A stretch of DNA of 64,000 nt from an uncultured Actinomycetes bacterium (lineage in GTDB: Bacteria; Actinomycetota; Thermoleophilia; Gaiellales; Gaiellaceae): the NCBI GenBank assembly GCA_963720515.1, contig OY970397.1:223363-287362 (forward strand), written 5' to 3'. The notes beneath the pieces were generated by a model. The model worked only from the letters and a program-made list of their open reading frames with translations, ran no database searches and was not told the origin of the DNA. Position numbers and translations under genes: made by a program. Position 1 is the stretch's first letter; every line of letters starts with the position of its first letter. Shown piece by piece: positions 20,164 to 62,655 of the stretch.

Positions 20164-20185
20164 CCCGCGGCGCCATCTCGCCTGC

Positions 20186-20303
20186 GGAGTAGACGCGCGC
20201 GCGTCTGACTTCGGGTCCCGACCCGCCCCCTGCTCGCCGCTCAGGCTATCGCTGAAAACCGCACGTGTCTGTGACGGAACTGCACCAAAAGCGTGAAATC
20301 GGG
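20186..20303 (-). repeat. intergenic element family, copy A (hairpin module type 3)
   Basis: Minus-strand reading: ..GTTCCGTCACAGACA-17 nt-TAGCCT-GAGCGGCGAGCAGGGGGCGGGTCGGGACCCGAAGTCAGACGCGCGCGCGTCT. The -35-like hexamer is at 20266-20271 and the -10-like hexamer at 20243-20248 (plus-strand coordinates). Confidence 0.8.
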
Positions 20304-20360
20304 CAGCCCGGGTACCCGCGCGGAGTCACCCGGATAGACTCGGCGGCGGAAGGAGGCGCA

Positions 20361-25708: not shown

Positions 25709-25815
25709 TGGCACACCTCGTCACACATCCGGCACATTCCGTCACAGACACGTGACGAAGTTCGCGCTACCGTCGAAAGCGGGGGAAGAGGGCCGAAGGC
25801 CCCGGGGGCAATCTC
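25709..25815 (+). repeat. intergenic element family, copy B (hairpin module type 2)
   Basis: TGGCACACCT CGTCACACATC CGGCACATTC CGTCACAGACA-17 nt-TACCGT (25768-25773), then GGGGGAAGAGGGCCGAAGGCCCCGGGGG. Confidence 0.85.
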
Positions 25816-25825
25816 GCGCGAAGGG

Positions 25826-32578: not shown

Positions 32579-32596
32579 GTCGAGACCGCCGATCGG

Positions 32597-32660
32597 TAAC
32601 TACTGGGCCGCGATTACCCCTGACTGCGCTCAGGCGACAGTACGCTCGCGCAAGCGAGCG
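32597..32660 (+). repeat. cassette-boundary repeat R2 (full length)
   Basis: TAACTACTGGGCCGCGATTACCCCTGACTGCGCTCAGGCGACAGTACGCTCGCGCAAGCGAGCG; starts about 18 nt after the stop of the upstream gene. Confidence 0.8.
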
Positions 32661-33750: not shown

Positions 33751-33854
33751 TGCCGCGCGGGAATCCACGCGGCCAGCAATTGGGCGCGGTTCGTCTCGCG
33801 CCCGTGCCTTGTCGCTCGGCGAGGGGACGAAGGGCTAGGCGAGGGTCCTTCACG

Positions 33855-33908
33855 CGACTACAGAGTTGCGTTTACCCCCGACTGCGCTCCAGCGACAGTA
33901 CGCTCGCG
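33855..33908 (+). repeat. cassette-boundary repeat R3
   Basis: CGACTACAGAGTTGCGTTTACCCCCGACTGCGCTCCAGCGACAGTACGCTCGCG. Confidence 0.8.
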
Positions 33909-34606: not shown

Positions 34607-34660
34607 CGTGTGCTCGCTCACCCATCCAGGCTATCGCTCGCCGCCGCCGCATCTCGCCAG

Positions 34661-34712
34661 CGACTACAGAGCTGTCTTTATCCCCGACTGCCCTCGAGCG
34701 ACAGCACGCACG
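34661..34712 (+). repeat. cassette-boundary repeat R4
   Basis: CGACTACAGAGCTGTCTTTATCCCCGACTGCCCTCGAGCGACAGCACGCACG. Confidence 0.75.
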
Positions 34713-35334: not shown

Positions 35335-35781
35335 CTACTCCGGCGCGAGGCCCTTGGCCCGGAGCTCATCCAGGGCGGACTCCGACTTCTCGAGTCCGTC
35401 GAGCCCCATGCCGTGCAGGACGTGGTCGGCCTTCGTGAACTGGATGTCACCGTAGCCGACGATCTCGATCCGGTTGCCCCACGGGTCGCGCGTCTCGAGC
35501 CCGCGTCCCGGCAGGATCTCGGCGCCAGCCTCTTCGAGGGCGCGGCGCGCGAGCTCCTTGTCGTCCACGACGAATCCGACGTGGCGGTTGCGGTCCGGCT
35601 CCTGCGTCTTCCCCTCCGAGAGCGCGACGAACTGGTCGCCGAGGTCGAGGAACGCCATACCTCCGACCCGGCCGCGGAGCGTGAACTCGAAGATCCGCCC
35701 GTACCAGGCGAGCGCCTCCTCGATGTCGCCGACCTCGAACGCGACGTGGTTCAGGCCGACGAGTCGCGGCCGGCCGGCCAC
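35335..35781 (-). CDS. glyoxalase/VOC family protein
   Basis: LNHVAFEVGDIEEALAWYGRIF...HVGFVVDD...RDPWGNRIEIV. Confidence 0.85.
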   Translation of the reverse strand: MAGRPRLVGLNHVAFEVGDIEEALAWYGRIFEFTLRGRVGGMAFLDLGDQFVALSEGKTQEPDRNRHVGFVVDDKELARRALEEAGAEILPGRGLETRDPWGNRIEIVGYGDIQFTKADHVLHGMGLDGLEKSESALDELRAKGLAPE

Positions 35782-35782
35782 G

Positions 35783-36613
35783 TCAGCTGCGGCGCCAGCC
35801 GCGCCGCTCGCCGTTGCCGCCGCCGGCCTGGTCGCGCTTCGGCTCCTCCGGCTCGGCTTCCGCCTCGGGCTCTGGCTCGGCTTCCGCCTCGGGCTCGGGC
35901 TCCGGTTCAGGTTCGGGCTCCGGTTCAGGTTCGGGCTCCGGTTCAGGTTCGGGCTCCGGTTCAGGTTCGGGCTCCGGCTCAGGTTCGGGCTCCGGCTCAG
36001 GTTCGGGCTCCGGCTCAGGTTCGGGCTCCGGCTCCGGCTCAGGTTCCGGCTCCGGTTCGGGCGGTGGGGACGGCGGGCCCGCCATGCGTGCGGCCGGCGG
36101 CACCTCCACGATCTGCTCGGCCGGGGGCGGCTCGACCTCGGGCCACTGGGCGGGAGTCCGCACCGCGAACTCGTTCATCCGCGAGACCACGTTCTCGAGT
36201 CCGCGGCGCGCCCATTCGGCCCGCTCGACCATGAGCCGGACGCCTTCGTCGATCCACTCCTCGCGCCGGTGCGCGGCCTCCTCGACGATCGCGGCCTGCC
36301 GGCGGGCCTCGGCCAGGATCTGATCCGCCTCGGTGCGCGCGGCGTCGAGGATCAGACGGGCGTCGGCCTCGGCCTCGCGGCTCCGGTCCGAGCGGAGACC
36401 CGACACCTCGGACTCGGCCTGGCGGCGCATGTCCTCGACCTCGGCGCGGGCCATCTCGAGGATGTGCTCGGCGGCCTGCTCGGCCGCGGTGAAGACGGCG
36501 GAGACTCGCGGGCCGATGCCTGCGGCCGAGTCGAGTTCGCGCTCATCGGCGCGCTCGCCGCCCGCCCCCGACGAGGGTGGGCCGCCGCCGGCTTGGTCGT
36601 CCGGGGGCCGCAC
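35783..36613 (-). CDS. coiled-coil protein with a long C-terminal (Pro-Glu)n repeat
   Basis: [26 protein letters not shown]...[21 protein letters not shown] (ATPase b/E- or DivIVA-like coiled coil), then about 45 PE dipeptides. TACGCT lies 7 nt upstream of GTG 36613. Confidence 0.7.
35846..36062. repeat. tandem 6/18-bp coding repeat (encodes the PE dipeptide array)
   Basis: ggctccggttcaggttcg repeated several times, then the ggctccggctcaggttcg variant, read directly from the sequence. Confidence 0.9.
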
Positions 36614-43625: not shown

Positions 43626-43735
43626 CCCCGTTTCTTTCGGCCCTCCACGTCGCACAATTGGCCCTGTCCTGGCCGCACAGGAAGGAGCGCGGCGCCGAAG
43701 GTAGAGCGCTTGTTAGCCGCCGGAGACACCTTCGC

Positions 43736-43880
43736 CGCGCTGTGCACGAATCGGCACAAGATCTGTCCGTTTGGGACGCAGACAAGCCAGCGCTTCGGCG
43801 TTAGCCTAGGCGGCGAGAAGGGGGCGGGTCGGGAGCCCGAATCAGACGCGCGCGTGAATCAGCGCGCCGCGCGCTCGCCT
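43736..43880 (+). repeat. intergenic element family, copy C (diverged; hairpin module type 3)
   Basis: GCTGTGCACGAATCGGCACAAGAT...GACGCAGACA (43779-43784)-17 nt-TAGCCT (43802-43807)-AGGCGGCGAGAAGGGGGCGGGTCGGGAGCCCGAATCAGACGCGCGCG. Confidence 0.6.
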
Positions 43881-44936: not shown

Positions 44937-45977
44937 ATGGCAGTGACCGGATCTCCCGAGCTCCTGATCGTCATGGGCGCGGCCGCGACCACCGAGCAGG
45001 TGGAGGACGTGGTCGCGCGCCTCGCCGAGGCGGGCGCCGACGCGCACGTCACGCCGGGGAAGGACGCCACGGTGATCGGAGCGATCGGCGAGCGCGATCT
45101 CCTGTCGCAGCTTCCGCTCGAGAGCTACCCCGGCGTCGAGCAGGTGCTGCCGATCCTGAAGCCGTACAAGCTCGTCTCGAAGGAGATGCGGAGCGGCCCC
45201 ACCGTGATCGACGTGCGGGGGCGGCGCGTGGGCGACGGCTACTTCGGGTTGATCGCAGGGCCCTGTTCCGTGGAATACAGGGAGCAGACGATGGAGGCGG
45301 CGCACGCGGTGCGCGACGCGGGCGCGTCCATGCTCCGCGGCGGTGCGTTCAAGCCGCGCTCCTCGCCGTACGCGTTCCAGGGGCTCGGCCAGGAGGGGCT
45401 CGACATCCTGAAGGAGGCGCGGGAGGAGACCGGCCTGCCGATCGTGACCGAGCTCATGGACGCGCGCGACGTCGAGGCGGTCGTGGACGCGGCCGACGTG
45501 ATCCAGATCGGCGCGCGGAACATGCAGAACTTCACGCTCCTCGCGGAGGTCGGCCGCTCCGGCAAGGCGGTGCTCCTGAAGCGCGGCGCGTCGGCGACGA
45601 TCGAGGAGCTCCTCATGGCGGCCGAGTACGTGCTGCGTGAGGGGAACTCGGAGGTCATGCTCTGCGAGCGCGGCATCCGCACGTTCGAGCGGGCGACGCG
45701 CTTCACGCTCGACCTCGGCGCCGTGCCCGTGCTGAAGCTCGAGACGCACCTCCCCGTGATCGTCGATCCGTCGCACGCAGCGGGCCGGCGCGACCTCGTG
45801 GCGCCGCTGGCGCGAGCGGCGGTTGCGGCCGGCGCGGACGGGATCATCGTCGAGGTGCACCCGAGGCCGGACGAGGCGCTCTCGGACGCGTCCCAGCAGA
45901 TCCCCTCGGCGGAGTTCGCGCGCTTCGCAGACGAGATCCGCGCACTCGCCTCGCTGATGGGCAAGGTCATCGGCTAG
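44937..45977 (+). CDS. aroF: 3-deoxy-7-phosphoheptulonate (DAHP) synthase, type I-beta with N-terminal regulatory domain
   Basis: IAGPCSVE...LRGGAFKPRSSPYAFQGLG...IQIGARNMQN...VIVDPSHAAGRRDLV. Confidence 0.9.
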   Translation: MAVTGSPELLIVMGAAATTEQVEDVVARLAEAGADAHVTPGKDATVIGAIGERDLLSQLPLESYPGVEQVLPILKPYKLVSKEMRSGPTVIDVRGRRVGDGYFGLIAGPCSVEYREQTMEAAHAVRDAGASMLRGGAFKPRSSPYAFQGLGQEGLDILKEAREETGLPIVTELMDARDVEAVVDAADVIQIGARNMQNFTLLAEVGRSGKAVLLKRGASATIEELLMAAEYVLREGNSEVMLCERGIRTFERATRFTLDLGAVPVLKLETHLPVIVDPSHAAGRRDLVAPLARAAVAAGADGIIVEVHPRPDEALSDASQQIPSAEFARFADEIRALASLMGKVIG

Positions 45978-45998
45978 CCCCGCGGCGCGGAGGACCTC

Positions 45999-47105
45999 AT
46001 GACGGACGTCTCGCGGCTCGCCATCGTCGGCACCGGCCTGATCGGGGCCTCGATCGGCCTGGCCGCGAAGGCGGCGGGGGTCGGGTCCGTTGTCGGGTAC
46101 GACGCGAACGTCGATGCGCTCGGCGTGGCGCGGGAGCGCGGCGCCGTGGACGAGGCGGCCGCCTCGCTCGCGGATGCGGTGGACGGCGCGGACCTCGCCG
46201 TGGTGGCGACGCCGGTGGCGACGCTCGCGGCCGCGGTCGGCGCGACGCTCGCGGCGAGCGGGGACGGGACGACCGTGACGGACGTCGGCTCGACCAAGCG
46301 GGCCGTGTGCTCGTCGGTCGAGGAGCGCGCGCGGTTCATCGGCGGGCATCCCGTGTCCGGCTCGGAGGCGCACGGCCCGGAGCACGCGCGCGGCGAGATC
46401 TTCGAGGGCGCCACGTGGTACCTGACGCCGGTCTCCGAGACGGATCCGGCGCGCTACAAGCGGCTGCACGGGTTCGTCGCGTCGCTCGGCGCCGTCCCGG
46501 TCGCCGTGGACCCGCGCGCGCACGACCGGCTCGTCGCGCTGACCTCGCACGTCCCGCACGCGCTCGCGAACGTCCTCGCGAACCAGGTCGGCTCCGTCCG
46601 GGTGGACGGGCACGAGCCGCTGGCCGGCGCCGGCGGGTCGCTGCGGGACATGACGCGCGTCGCCGGCGCGAACCCGCGGATCTGGGTGGACATCTTCCTC
46701 GAGAACGCCGACGAGCTCTCGAGCGCGCTGGCCGAGCACCGGCGGCGCGTCGAGGAGGTCGAGCGCGCGCTCGCCGAGGGCGACGCCGGCTACCTCGCGC
46801 GCTGGATCGGCGAGGCGGCGCAGCACCGGCGGCGGATGCTCGAGACCTCGTACCCCGATCCCGGTTCGCTCCAGCGGCTGCGGGTGCACGTGCCCGACCG
46901 GCCGGGCGTGCTCTCCGGGATCACGCAGGCGCTCGGCGCGGAGGGGATCAACATCGAGGACTTCGACCTCCACCACATGACGCCGGAGCGCGGCGGCACG
47001 CTCGTCATCCTCGTCGCCGGGGAGAAGGAGGCGCTGCGCGCCGCCGACCTCCTCGAGGCGCAGGGCTACGCGGTCGTCGTCACGCCGGTCCTCGAGGACG
47101 AGTAG
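45999..47105 (+). CDS. tyrA: prephenate dehydrogenase with C-terminal ACT domain
   Basis: LAIVGTGLIGASIGLAAK...FIGGHPVSGSE...LTSHVPHALAN; ACT-like tail. Confidence 0.9.
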   Translation: MTDVSRLAIVGTGLIGASIGLAAKAAGVGSVVGYDANVDALGVARERGAVDEAAASLADAVDGADLAVVATPVATLAAAVGATLAASGDGTTVTDVGSTKRAVCSSVEERARFIGGHPVSGSEAHGPEHARGEIFEGATWYLTPVSETDPARYKRLHGFVASLGAVPVAVDPRAHDRLVALTSHVPHALANVLANQVGSVRVDGHEPLAGAGGSLRDMTRVAGANPRIWVDIFLENADELSSALAEHRRRVEEVERALAEGDAGYLARWIGEAAQHRRRMLETSYPDPGSLQRLRVHVPDRPGVLSGITQALGAEGINIEDFDLHHMTPERGGTLVILVAGEKEALRAADLLEAQGYAVVVTPVLEDE

Positions 47106-47149: not shown

Positions 47150-47275
47150 GGGCGTGCTAGAACCGGCGCGCTTCCGGCACGATTTCGGCACACGGGCGCC
47201 CCGCGCGCGGGGCTATCGTGACTCTGGGGACGCGCGCTCCCCCAAGGGGGGAGTACGCCTCGGGGGAGACATGGC
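47150..47275 (+). repeat. intergenic element family, copy D (hairpin module type 1; -35 position degenerate)
   Basis: CTTCCGGCACGATTTCGGCACACGGG-17 nt-TATCGT (47214-47219)-GACTCTGGGGACGCGCGCTCCCCCAAGGGGGGAGTACGCCTCGGGGGAGACATGGCC. Confidence 0.65.
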
Positions 47276-51314: not shown

Positions 51315-51339
51315 CCCACGCGGCCCCGTCCCAACCGGC

Positions 51340-51467
51340 CATGTCCTCGGCGAGGCGCACTCCCCCCTTGGGGGCGCGCGGGCCCCAGCACGAACGCTAT
51401 CGAGGCCGGGCGCGCGTGTCTGTCACGGAACTGCGCCGATTGTGTGCCGATCGCTCCACAGGCGGTG
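51340..51467 (-). repeat. intergenic element family, copy E (hairpin module type 1)
   Basis: Minus-strand reading: CCTGTGGAGCGATCGGCACACAATCGGCGCAGTTCCGTGACAGACA-17 nt-TAGCGT-TCGTGCTGGGGCCCGCGCGCCCCCAAGGGGGGAGTGCGCCTCGCCGAGGACATGGCC. Confidence 0.85.
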
Positions 51468-55254: not shown

Positions 55255-55385
55255 CCGGCTGTGGACGAACCGGCACAGACTCGGCACGGTCCCGTGACAG
55301 ACACGCGCGCCCGGCCCCGATAGCGTTCGTGCTGGGGCCCGCGCGCCCCCCAAGGGGGGAGTGCGCCTCGCCGGGGACATGGCTC
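55255..55385 (+). repeat. intergenic element family, copy F (hairpin module type 1)
   Basis: GCTGTGGACGAACCGGCACAGACTCGGCACGGTCCCGTGACAGACA (CAGACA 55298-55303)-17 nt-TAGCGT (55321-55326)-TCGTGCTGGGGCCCGCGCGCCCCCCAAGGGGGGAGTGCGCCTCGCCGGGGACATGGC. Confidence 0.85.
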
Positions 55386-55426
55386 CGGCGGACGGGTCTG
55401 AAAGGGCGTGCGAGGGCGCGGCGGCG

Positions 55427-58671: not shown

Positions 58672-59457
58672 AGATCGACGTCGCGGCGACCGCCCCGCTG
58701 GGGGCGGCCGTGCTCGAAGGGCTTGCCGAGCGCGGACGACGTCGAGCTGCTCGTCACGCGGCCGGACCGCCCGCGCGGGCGGGGCCGGAAGCTCGGCGCG
58801 CCGCCGGCCAAGGAGGTCGCCGAGCGGCTCGGCATCCCGGTGGAGCAGCCGGAGCGGCTGGACGACTGGCCCGGCGACGCGCCGGTCGTGGTCGTCGCCG
58901 CGTACGGGGCGCTGATTCCCTCGGCGCTGCTCGAGGACCGGCTCTGGCTGAACGTCCATCCGTCGCTCCTGCCGCGCTGGCGCGGGGCGGCGCCGGTCGA
59001 GCGCGCGATCATGGCCGGCGACGCGGAGACCGGCGTGACGATCCACCGGACGACCGCCGAGCTCGACGCGGGGCCGATCGCCGCGCAGCGGGCGTTCCCG
59101 ATCGGGCCGGACGACGACGCGGGCGTCGTGTACGAGCGGGCGGCCGCGACCGCGCTCGAGCTGCTCGACGAGGTGCTGCCCGAGCCGGCCTTCCAGCCGC
59201 AGCCGGAGGAGGGCGCGACCTACGCCGAGAAGATCGGGCCGAAGGACCGCGAGCTCGACTGGTCGCGCCCGCCGCAGGAGCTGCACGACCGGATCCGCGG
59301 GTTGGCGCCGCACATCGGCGCCCGCGGCGAGGTCGAGGGCCGCCCCGTGATCGTGTGGCGCTCGCGCCTTGTGGACGGCGGACTCGAGATCCTCGAGGTC
59401 CAGCCGGAGGGCGGGAAGCGCATGCCGCTCGAAGCCTTCCGCCGCGGTCTCCGGTGA
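58668..59457 (+). CDS. fmt: methionyl-tRNA formyltransferase, frame broken once near 58735
   Basis: GTGA overlap with def. VKIDVAATAPLGAAVLEGLAERG, then DDVELLVTRPDRPRGRGRK...HPSLLPRWRGAAP in the frame of ORF 58723..59457. Confidence 0.88.
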
Positions 59458-59580
59458 GCGCGGTCACGAACTCGGCGCAGGTCGTGACACTCTCGGCACG
59501 TTCCGTCACAGACACGCGCGGATTTCGCGCGTATCGTCAACGGCGGGGGCAAGGGGCCGAAGGCCCCCGGGGGAAGTCTC
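59458..59580 (+). repeat. intergenic element family, copy G (hairpin module type 2)
   Basis: CGGCGCAGGT CGTGACACTCT CGGCACGTTC CGTCACAGACA (59473-59514)-17 nt-TATCGT (59532-59537), then GGCGGGGGCAAGGGGCCGAAGGCCCCCGGGGGAAG. Confidence 0.85.
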
Positions 59581-59596
59581 ACGAGCGGGTTGCGGC

Positions 59597-62500: not shown

Positions 62501-62534
62501 CCTCCGAGGCAGCCGTCCGACGCGCCGCTGGCGC

Positions 62535-62655
62535 CCGCAAGCGGGCGCTCCCCCCGTTCGGGGGCGCGAGGCTCCCAGCACGAACGCTATCGGGGCCGGG
62601 CGCACGTGTGTGTCGCGGAACTGCACCGAATCTGTGCCGATCGCTCCACAGGCCG
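62535..62655 (-). repeat. intergenic element family, copy H (hairpin module type 1 variant) between ribD and ribE
   Basis: Minus-strand reading: CCTGTGGAGCGATCGGCACAGATTCGGTGCAGTTCCGCGACACACA-17 nt-TAGCGT-TCGTGCTGGGAGCCTCGCGCCCCCGAACGGGGGGAGCGCCCGCTTGCGGGCGC. Confidence 0.8.

Follow-up and report, generated by a model that had tools for sequence, protein, structure and literature searches.

The pho boxes of Escherichia coli keep a distance of about 10 bp to the -10 element, a rule that the CiaR box shares, and the recognition helix of Mycobacterium tuberculosis PhoP is NVVESYVSYLRRK. PhoP recognises TCACAGC, 7 bp repeated after a strict spacer of 4 bp; the wing sits in the minor groove of this spacer, the helix enters the major groove, and binding extends cooperatively to tetramers (PMC4832192); the PHO box is built of 11-nt units of 7+4 (PMC4415409, PMC6988585). 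The AfsQ1 site reads GTnAC-n6-GTnAC. MtrA recognises GTCACAgcg direct repeats in Mycobacterium and GtnAcC-n5-GTnAcn in Streptomyces (PMC13189361, PMC4285127). In the GlnR complex, four DNA-binding domains stand head to tail on either side of the -35, with contacts to sigma region 4, to the beta flap and to the C-terminal domain of the alpha subunit (alpha-CTD) (PMC10235972), PhoP activation complexes have been solved with 2, 4 and 6 protomers (PMC11825685), and the CiaR box TTTAAG-N5-TTTAAG, 10 bp from the -10, drives several small RNA (sRNA) genes per genome (PMC3091779). Here we analysed a stretch of 64,000 nt (the window) from contig OY970397.1 of an uncultured member of the Gaiellaceae (assembly GCA_963720515.1), in which phased direct repeats precede a predicted promoter between fmt and rsmB. 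Actinobacteria of the order Gaiellales abound in soil, hardly any have been cultured, and we know of no work on their transcription. Judged from the sequence and its relatives, the repeats are the upstream half of a highly conserved, predicted promoter module that is specific to Gaiellales-like actinobacteria and present in tens of copies per genome. The literature searched describes neither the motif and its conservation across the order nor the -35 core embedded in it or the coupling to multi-copy G-rich RNA modules, and exact core 12-mers returned only unrelated primers; the kind of element is known.

A phased repeat array precedes the predicted promoter

The repeat unit is 11 bp long and consists of a 7-bp core, CG[G/T][C/G]ACA, and a 4-bp, mostly T-rich linker. 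With transcription predicted to start 7 nt past the -10, the cores begin at about -63, -52, -41 and -30. The linkers follow nWTT after units 1, 2 and 4, and GACA, the -35 core, fills the place of the linker between cores 3 and 4. Some copies bear one or two extra distal units, and copies with a poor -35 (47k in the window and the CACACGCG-type variants elsewhere) retain the units and the -10 register.

The copy between fmt and rsmB (59k) carries five G[GT][CG]AC-type direct-repeat units on the forward strand (59461-59510) at steps of 11, 10, 11 and 10 bp (Table 1), extra distal unit included. The array begins 4 nt 3' of the fmt stop (TGA, 59455-59457), and the spacer of 130 nt between this stop and the rsmB GTG at 59588 holds the module; the identities of both genes were confirmed with Pfam. 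GACA at 59511-59514 forms the 4-bp linker between the last full unit and a unit-like core in the promoter spacer, and this core is followed by its own T-rich linker (TTT, 59523-59525). Transcription is predicted to start at about 59542-59545, and the leader can form a hairpin, GGGGCC-GAA-GGCCCC (59553-59567), followed by GGGGGAAG; the stability of this fold is no better than that of shuffles, and the hairpin is shared with the paralogue at 25774-25825. The units, the CAGACA hexamer, the 17-bp spacer and the TATCGT hexamer of the original prediction are all present as written, and the copies it described at 25709-25773 and 55259-55326 match the sequence. Its division of the DNA upstream of CAGACA into three to four units was right but overlooked the fifth, distal unit and the core downstream in the spacer, and the last unit abuts the hexamer with a 2-bp overlap rather than occupying the -35 position, as had been proposed.

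By a search with the core CGTSACAGACACG allowing mismatches, repeat finding, nhmmer and a unit-pair scan, eight modules were found in the window: 20k(-), 25k(+), 43k(+), 47k(+), 51k(-), 55k(+), 59k(+) and 62k(-). The copies 25k, 51k, 55k and 59k are intact, 20k has an exact core and weak upstream units, 43k is diverged, 47k is degenerate and 62k has a diverged core. All eight share phased units, a TAnCnT -10 and, at a 17-bp spacing from this TAnnnT-type hexamer, the position of a -35-like, GACA-type hexamer, which is the geometry of sigma-70/sigma-A promoters. Arrays of three units at 10-11 bp occurred six times in the window, five of them in modules, against 1.11 +/- 1.04 (maximum 4) in 200 first-order Markov simulations; unit pairs were essentially restricted to modules, which account for the surplus of the 170 observed over about 122 in shuffles. 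Judged by their downstream parts, the window copies belong to three paralogous classes (20k/43k, 25k/59k and 47k/51k/55k/62k); they are therefore not eight independent observations, and the independent evidence for the module comes from other genomes.

The module family is conserved across Gaiellales genomes and metagenomes

A first scan with the pattern CCGTSACAGACACG-N15-TANNNT, limited to one genome per species, gave at least 107 loci. Among the matches listed, about 96 loci lay on high-GC contigs labelled Gaiellaceae, Gaiellales, Thermoleophilia or unclassified Actinomycetota, while 11 matches in unrelated taxa had no other module feature and were used as chance controls. We collected 149 distinct modules from Gaiellaceae, Gaiellales and Thermoleophilia genomes and from soil metagenomes, and several of these metagenome-assembled genomes show 70-81% identity to the window over syntenic genes. 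In the information profile of 94 aligned copies, the cores CG[GT][CG]ACA begin at -21, -10 and +1 from the anchor with a period of exactly 11 bp, T-rich bases lie ahead of each core, and the two upstream units, which the search had not forced, hold about 12 bits. The strict unit G[GT][CG]AC stood at -20 in 40 of 99 copies and at -9 in 50 of 99, against a background of 0.32 per position (more than 100-fold enrichment). Instead of being lost when more copies were aligned, the outcome that the original prediction had named as telling against it, the register became sharper across the 99 copies, and these two peaks indicate that the periodicity is real. The predicted unit length of 10-11 bp also holds, with exactly 11/11 as the commonest spacing in the family and the 10/11 spacing of 25k and 59k in the minority. 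A distal variant unit, cTG[TG]GGA, lies at -32, one 11-bp period beyond unit 1, in 11-19 of 99 copies.

Since the first search had forced the -35 region and the -10, metagenomes were scanned independently with units 2 and 3 only (TTCGGCACNNTYCCGTSACA), which gave 61 distinct high-GC matches and 33 low-GC chance matches. TAnnnT stood exactly at +29 in 55 of the 61 high-GC matches, at +28 in one and at +27, +30 or +31 in none, and in 0 of the 33 low-GC matches. The -35 octamer was CAGACACG in 32 of 61, the rest being CACACGCG, CACACCCG, CACCCTCG and similar octamers (CACAC[GCT]CG-like). Downstream of it, each position of CGTGCG at +12 to +17 was kept in 48-58 copies, and T occurred at +20, +21 and +22 in 30, 43 and 46; this fourth core (about -30 from the predicted start) ends at +18 and the -10 begins at +29, leaving a gap of 10 bp. 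Unit 1 was conserved as GTCACAC with per-position counts of G52, T37, C45, A48, C60, A41 and C48 (n = 61), and the strict unit was found in 0 of the 33 low-GC matches. A 14-mer core is nearly identical across the whole order. Phased direct repeats linked to a promoter at many loci, as originally proposed, are confirmed both in the window and in related genomes.

A CACGTG palindrome at +10 to +15, running from the end of the -35 into the fourth core, was observed in over half of the family members, T standing at +14 in 59 of 94 copies and in 42 of 61; the 59k copy reads CACGCG there (59513-59518).

Genes and G-rich sequences follow the predicted start

By its sequence features the module is a sigma-A-type promoter with a predicted start. 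An ATG or GTG 5-8 nt past the -10 opens a long open reading frame (ORF) with high GC content at third codon positions in 14 of the 149 modules by automatic criteria and in about 20 by eye, and a start codon at this distance, as expected of a leaderless gene, argues for a working promoter. The products of the predicted leaderless genes are ComM, of the Mg-chelatase family, one protein similar to ComF and a pair of small proteins that match no Pfam family. Modules also stand ahead of recG, purD, hutH, gatA, tgt, dapA, ftsW, tyrA and a sugar transferase gene, with leaders of 40-180 nt. At locus L082, recA lies about 160 nt downstream of a module, and between them is a GAAC-N4-GTTC box (cGAACacctGTTCga), which we take to be of the Gram-positive LexA/SOS type. 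The presence of a module at recA, recG, comM and the comF-like gene hints at a DNA-uptake and repair subset. A generic sigma-70 scanner gave no matches, because its demand for 9 of 12 matches to TTGACA/TATAAT is too strict for a GC-rich consensus.

Some other assignments were considered and rejected. A leaderless thpR at loci L030, L072 and L077 was discarded when the frames showed a thpR-like GTG overlapping the -10: the cinA-like TGA lies inside unit 3 (CCGTGACA), the module overlaps the coding sequence, and the ThpR-like ORF (IRLFxAL motif) begins at the GTG over the last two -10 bases. Modules placed within such a cinA-like/ThpR-like coding overlap are therefore predicted to be promoters internal to the operon. 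The idea of stable-RNA promoters was dropped, as the window is without tRNA and only one related module (L060) precedes a tRNA gene (tRNA-Leu). The PafBC/RecA-NDp motif, TGTCGGTG-N8-TAnnnT, matches neither in spacing nor in sequence, and the CRP-type palindrome TGTGA-N6-TCACA was excluded, the units being direct repeats with a TGTG..CACA distance of 10, not 8.

About 110 of the 149 modules (74%) continue from the predicted start into recurrent G-rich sequences. Class I, GGGGAGGAGG.. (GGGGAGGAGGCCGGGCGAACCG.ACUAAGGGACC), accounts for 61 modules and resembles a Shine-Dalgarno sequence at the extreme 5' end; class II, GGGYGGYGGGUGG..CCCCACCC..GGGUGGGG, for 24; class III, GGGGGCGGGUCGGGACCC, for 13; seven modules carry a G-quadruplex-like sequence, and another five belong with the 51k copy. 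In the window such sequences occupy 20180-20242, 25774-25825, 51330-51393, 55327-55392 and 59538-59587. Rfam 15 covariance models gave no match to a module, at gathering thresholds in the window and 18 loci and at E<=1 in 43-63 kb. The minimum free energies of the transcribed parts were no better than those of shuffles, and an 18-member class II alignment held no compensatory changes; with neither an energy nor a covariation signal, we do not claim structured RNAs. Some class I variants contain a possible three-codon ORF (GUG CCU UAA). Pairing of GTGAC with GTCAC units into a hairpin was rejected by eye, the units occurring in mixed combinations, often GTGAC with GTGAC, without covariation.

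A tandem winged-helix activator is the likeliest reader of the array

Units of 7+4 bp in an 11-bp register, linkers rich in T, four sites placed around the -35 and a gap of 10 bp to the -10 together lead us to favour, by analogy, sites of a tandem OmpR/PhoB-type winged-helix activator, the likeliest mechanism and one to which we give about an even chance of being right. Head-to-tail protomers of one such regulator, which could be a response regulator, a GlnR-like orphan or a protein similar to SARPs, would fill successive cores on one face of the DNA, each placing its recognition helix in the major groove of a core, and the wing would reach into the T-rich linker. Standing on both sides of sigma region 4 at the -35, as in the solved GlnR and M. 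tuberculosis PhoP complexes, they would recruit RNA polymerase or stabilise it; the sign of regulation is probably activation. To the regulon would belong many short G-rich RNAs and several leaderless mRNAs (for ComM, the ComF-like protein and the two small proteins), besides housekeeping and repair genes with leaders, and the target of the 59k copy would be rsmB, downstream of fmt. Throughout the family, repeats lie on one face at 10-11 bp, the units are of the 7+4 type and the proximal repeats flank the -35 about 10 bp from the -10. Such an occupancy would also account for the conserved fourth core and T-rich linker inside the spacer, for which, as far as the alignments tell, there is no other explanation. 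The pho-box-style layout that the original prediction saw in the array agrees well with the 7+4 units, the strict -10 register and the lineage-wide conservation; no regulator gene in the DNA searched was linked to a module.

Several findings weigh against an activator of this kind. With Pfam and tblastn, no OmpR/PhoB-type or winged-helix regulator gene was found in the window or beside any module; the only transcription proteins of the window are an extracytoplasmic function (ECF) sigma factor (36.6 kb) and IdeR. An approximate M. tuberculosis MtrA query searched with tblastn against about 1.3-1.5 Mb had a single match, none of it in the window: an MprA-like gene (L192) that lies 4 kb from a module and whose own upstream region lacks the motif. 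The targets (sRNAs, comM, comF-like, recA, recG, purD, hutH, gatA, tgt, dapA, ftsW) follow no single functional theme, and the -35 of about half of the copies (CAGACA) is reasonable, so that these could be active with no activator bound. Since GTSAC is almost self-complementary, the orientation of the units rests on flanking bases; the transcription start is a predicted one; and the window copies are paralogues, whose similarity is partly shared descent.

Among described systems, the promoters of GlnR and PhoP resemble the module in the head-to-tail 11-bp period, in the 7+4 unit with the wing in the spacer and in the 4 (or 2-6) sites around the -35, and the module core is similar to TCACAGC of M. 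tuberculosis PhoP and to gTnAc of the GlnR a-site. They differ in that CG[GT][CG]ACA with T-rich linkers and an embedded GACA matches no published box, in that the module targets are not phosphate or nitrogen genes, and in the near-identity of the 14-mer core, which is far stronger across the order than that of PHO or GlnR boxes. The GTCACA-type direct repeats that the original prediction gave for MtrA are correct (PMC13189361, PMC4285127). MtrA boxes share with the module this type of core (G[GT][CG]ACA fits) and repeats about one helical turn apart, and they can sit at about -34 of an activated promoter, but positions 7-9 of the module are c/g and then T-rich, without a conserved 'gcg' tail. 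Typical MtrA targets (dnaA/oriC, cell-wall hydrolases) are not among the sampled modules, only ftsW (L086) fits a characteristic one, and no mtrA-like gene was seen in the DNA examined. CiaR promoters likewise have an OmpR-family direct repeat (6+5 = 11 bp) ending 10 bp upstream of the -10, and the strongest promoters of that regulon drive several paralogous sRNA genes per genome; however, the CiaR motif is A/T-rich and has two repeats instead of four, and the CiaR-controlled sRNAs carry an anti-Shine-Dalgarno sequence, whereas most module RNAs begin with Shine-Dalgarno-like G-rich runs.

Modules appear to be gained and lost between related genomes

The spacer between aroF, the DAHP synthase gene, and tyrA measures about 200 nt and holds a module in L004, L016 and L032, while in the window it is 20 nt long (45977-45999). 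The module in these three spacers (L032, 7037-7234) is a full one with a G-quadruplex-like RNA (CCCCGGGUGGGUGGGGGUUAGGGAUGGG). A counterpart of 43k is absent from L032 (4600-4866), and no module follows the lpdA-like gene in L034. In 1.14 Mb of related loci, nhmmer found about 13 modules in addition to those by which the loci had been selected, which corresponds to tens per genome and makes the window, with eight in 64 kb, about ten-fold enriched. There were no inverted ends within or around modules, and no target duplication was seen between the filled and empty aroF-tyrA sites of genomes about 75% identical. Modules appear to be gained, lost and duplicated as whole units, and their base-by-base conservation across distant genomes indicates selection on the units themselves.

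Alternative explanations of the array

The same tandem protein could act as a repressor, with the array as an operator over -63 to -20 of an intrinsically strong promoter, so that sRNAs and leaderless genes stay off until a signal arrives. The array does extend over the -35 into the spacer, the OmpR/PhoB family has repressing members too, PhoP and MtrA among them, and with a usable -35 in about half of the copies and a good -10 in all of them the polymerase might not need help. A -10 register fixed to the base pair (55 of 61 at +29) is nevertheless typical of protein-polymerase contact, operators usually being variable, and copies without a -35 core still keep the units and the -10, which makes repression quite unlikely in our judgement. 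Alternatively, the units may be read by the polymerase or a polymerase-bound factor, as a GC-rich, lineage-specific equivalent of the UP element or through a WhiA-like sigma-4 domain that recognises hexamers of the GACA/CACA type, and the module would then simply be the strong constitutive promoter of the lineage. UP-element subsites sit at -40 to -63, where the units lie; UP elements, however, are A/T-rich and read in the minor groove, whereas the conserved bases here form G/C-containing 7-mers, with about 12 bits in the two upstream units and T-richness confined to the 4-bp linkers, and an array of three to five units offers more sites than two alpha-CTDs could fill. All cores share their final ACA with the -35 core, and most copies have GACAC at the -35, the sequence that the WhiA C-terminal domain binds by mimicking sigma-4 on GACA (PMC10243135). 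WhiA/WhiB promoters are also actinobacterial sigma-A promoters with the factor beside sigma region 4, but the GACAC of the module is at the -35 itself, its upstream units read GGCAC/GTCAC, and its sites are fixed in strand and distance where WhiA sites vary in both. Heterogeneous targets and the lack of a dedicated regulator gene nearby would suit reading by the polymerase, while the restriction to only tens of promoters per genome would not, nor would the infC-rpmI-rplT ribosomal-protein operon of the window, which has no array; on balance we hold this explanation to be unlikely.

The modules might also be copy-and-paste cassettes, either mobile promoters or a miniature repeat, whose periodicity would have been left behind by slippage or duplication and would persist through recent spread instead of protein binding. 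Prokaryotes are known to reuse promoters, with highly similar promoter segments lying before unrelated sequence and showing presence/absence polymorphism (PMC3575422), and the window offers three paralogous subfamilies, the likeness of 51k and 55k amid unrelated flanks, a density of 8 copies in 64 kb that is about ten times that of related loci, presence and absence at syntenic sites, and six of eight copies without a coding target. Yet the module has no terminal inverted repeats, target duplications or other transposon-like ends, one promoter stands before unrelated downstream parts that include conserved leaderless genes in many genomes, and a functional pattern at the level of the base (7+4) is kept over the whole order and ends sharply at the units. 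As duplication is compatible with binding of a regulator and no substitute for it, we regard this as a very unlikely explanation of the periodicity. The original prediction had also raised DnaA boxes and a regulator-titration array. TGTGGAC/TGTGGAG (reverse complement TCGTCCACA / CGCTCCACA) does occur at the distal end of 51k, 55k and 62k, and one related copy (L016) has a perfect TTGTCCACA. At the level of the family a DnaA-box cluster fails: of 99 copies only 5 have a distal TGTGGA (11 a TG[TG]GGA), and a module holds at most one site instead of several 9-mers near TTGTCCACA / TTATCCACA; lying exactly one 11-bp period upstream, the distal TGTGGA looks more like a variant fourth or fifth unit. 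Titration finds no support in modules that are dispersed and each coupled to their own -10 and predicted transcript, and we consider both ideas almost certainly wrong.

If the tandem activator exists, the module would be a natural and unusually clean case of the GlnR/PhoP activation-complex geometry, with four sites bracketing the -35, and its apparent gain and loss would show how such a regulon expands. More tentatively, and with a greater chance of being wrong than right, the regulon may be growing by copy-and-paste of cassettes of about 100-200 bp into the intergenic spacers of Gaiellales genomes, each with a four-site array, promoter and short RNA headed by a Shine-Dalgarno-like G run, under one global regulator and often placed antisense to or convergent with housekeeping genes, which would supply fast-turning-over sRNAs and internal or antisense promoters. 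In a variant of this scenario, the array may be read by the polymerase and represent a new, GC-rich kind of UP element. The module would define a large regulon and provides a searchable promoter signature (11-bp cores, embedded GACA and TAnnnT 10 bp past the last core) that predicts starts, leaderless genes, a recA promoter and dozens of unannotated small RNA genes from metagenomic DNA.

Setting of the window copies and nearby repeats

Six of the eight window modules are aimed at the 3' end of a neighbouring gene, without a coding target. Three of them are convergent with that gene: 25k runs towards the 3' end of an SLT transglycosylase gene, 43k towards a tRNA synthetase gene of class I (Tyr/Trp), and 55k, downstream of metK, towards an IdeR/DtxR-family gene. 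The copies 20k, 51k and 62k are antisense inserts between co-directional genes: 20k between a pyridine-nucleotide disulphide oxidoreductase (dihydrolipoamide-dehydrogenase-like, here lpdA-like) gene, at whose 3' end it aims, and the next gene, 51k between der, likewise its 3' aim, and gpsA, and 62k between ribD and ribE (both genes named by eye). Only 47k, between tyrA and aroA and in the direction of both, and 59k face gene starts. The predicted RNA of 25k is of the same class as that of 59k. The 20k RNA is of the class GGGGGCGGGUCGGGACCC with a hairpin AGACGCGC/GCGCGUCU, and 43k shares this class. The 51k RNA reads GGGGCC..GCCCCC-AAGG-GGGGGAG and has relatives in 55k (88% identity between the two copies over 106 nt, with unrelated flanks), in 62k and in 47k, where A-U replaces C-G in the first hairpin. 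The three units of 47k (GGCRC) follow at 11-bp steps, but GACA is absent, the -35 position reading CACGGG, and this copy was not anchored by the core search.

Table 1. Coordinates of the 59k module and of the other modules in the window
Feature	Position	Strand	Basis or sequence details
59k, distal fifth unit GTCAC	59463-59467	+	Read from sequence
59k, unit CGGCGCA	59473-59479	+	Read from sequence
59k, unit CGTGACA	59483-59489	+	Read from sequence
59k, unit CGGCACG	59494-59500	+	Read from sequence
59k, unit CGTCACA	59504-59510	+	Read from sequence, aligned with other copies
59k, -35-like hexamer CAGACA	59509-59514	+	17 bp to the -10 in all window copies
59k, in-register unit-like core CGCGCGG (family consensus CGTGCGC) and its T-rich linker, inside promoter spacer	59515-59526	+	Conservation in the metagenome sample
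59k, -10 hexamer TATCGT (TAnnnT type)	59532-59537	+	Position in family, leaderless members
59k, predicted short G-rich 5' leader, running into rsmB GTG 59588	59538-59587	+	Fold, 25k paralogue
20k	20180-20309	-	Exact core CCGTCACAGACACG 20277-20264; weak upstream units; -10 TAGCCT 20248-20243
25k	25709-25825	+	Units GGCAC 25710, GTCAC 25720, GGCAC 25731, GTCAC 25741; CAGACA; -10 TACCGT 25768-25773
43k (diverged)	43733-43870	+	CAGACA 43779-43784; -10 TAGCCT 43802-43807
47k (degenerate)	47164-47275	+	GGCGC 47165, GGCAC 47176, GGCAC 47187; -10 TATCGT 47214-47219
51k	51330-51461	-	CTGTGGA distal variant, GGCAC, GGCGC; CGTGACAGACACG 51427-51415; -10 TAGCGT 51399-51394
55k	55259-55392	+	TGTGGAC distal variant, GGCAC 55272, GGCAC 55283; CGTGACAGACACG 55293-55305; -10 TAGCGT 55321-55326
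62k (core CCGCGACACACACG)	62520-62651	-	CTGTGGA, GGCAC, GGTGC; -10 TAGCGT 62589-62584

Two other repeats were observed in the window. An 18-bp tandem repeat, CTCCGGCTCAGGTTCGGG, with 12 copies and 88% matches, lies at 35846-36062 in a stop-to-stop ORF (35335-36174, minus strand) with a C-terminal glyoxalase-family domain, and is probably a repetitive low-complexity segment of the protein. In a stretch of slightly lower GC content, a 53-nt intergenic repeat, GCGACTACAGAG..TTTACCCC.GACTGCGCTC.AGCGACAGTACGCTCG, occurs at 32596-32648, 33854-33906 and 34660-34712 with 81-85% identity, each copy upstream of a gene, and may be a second shared promoter or operator.

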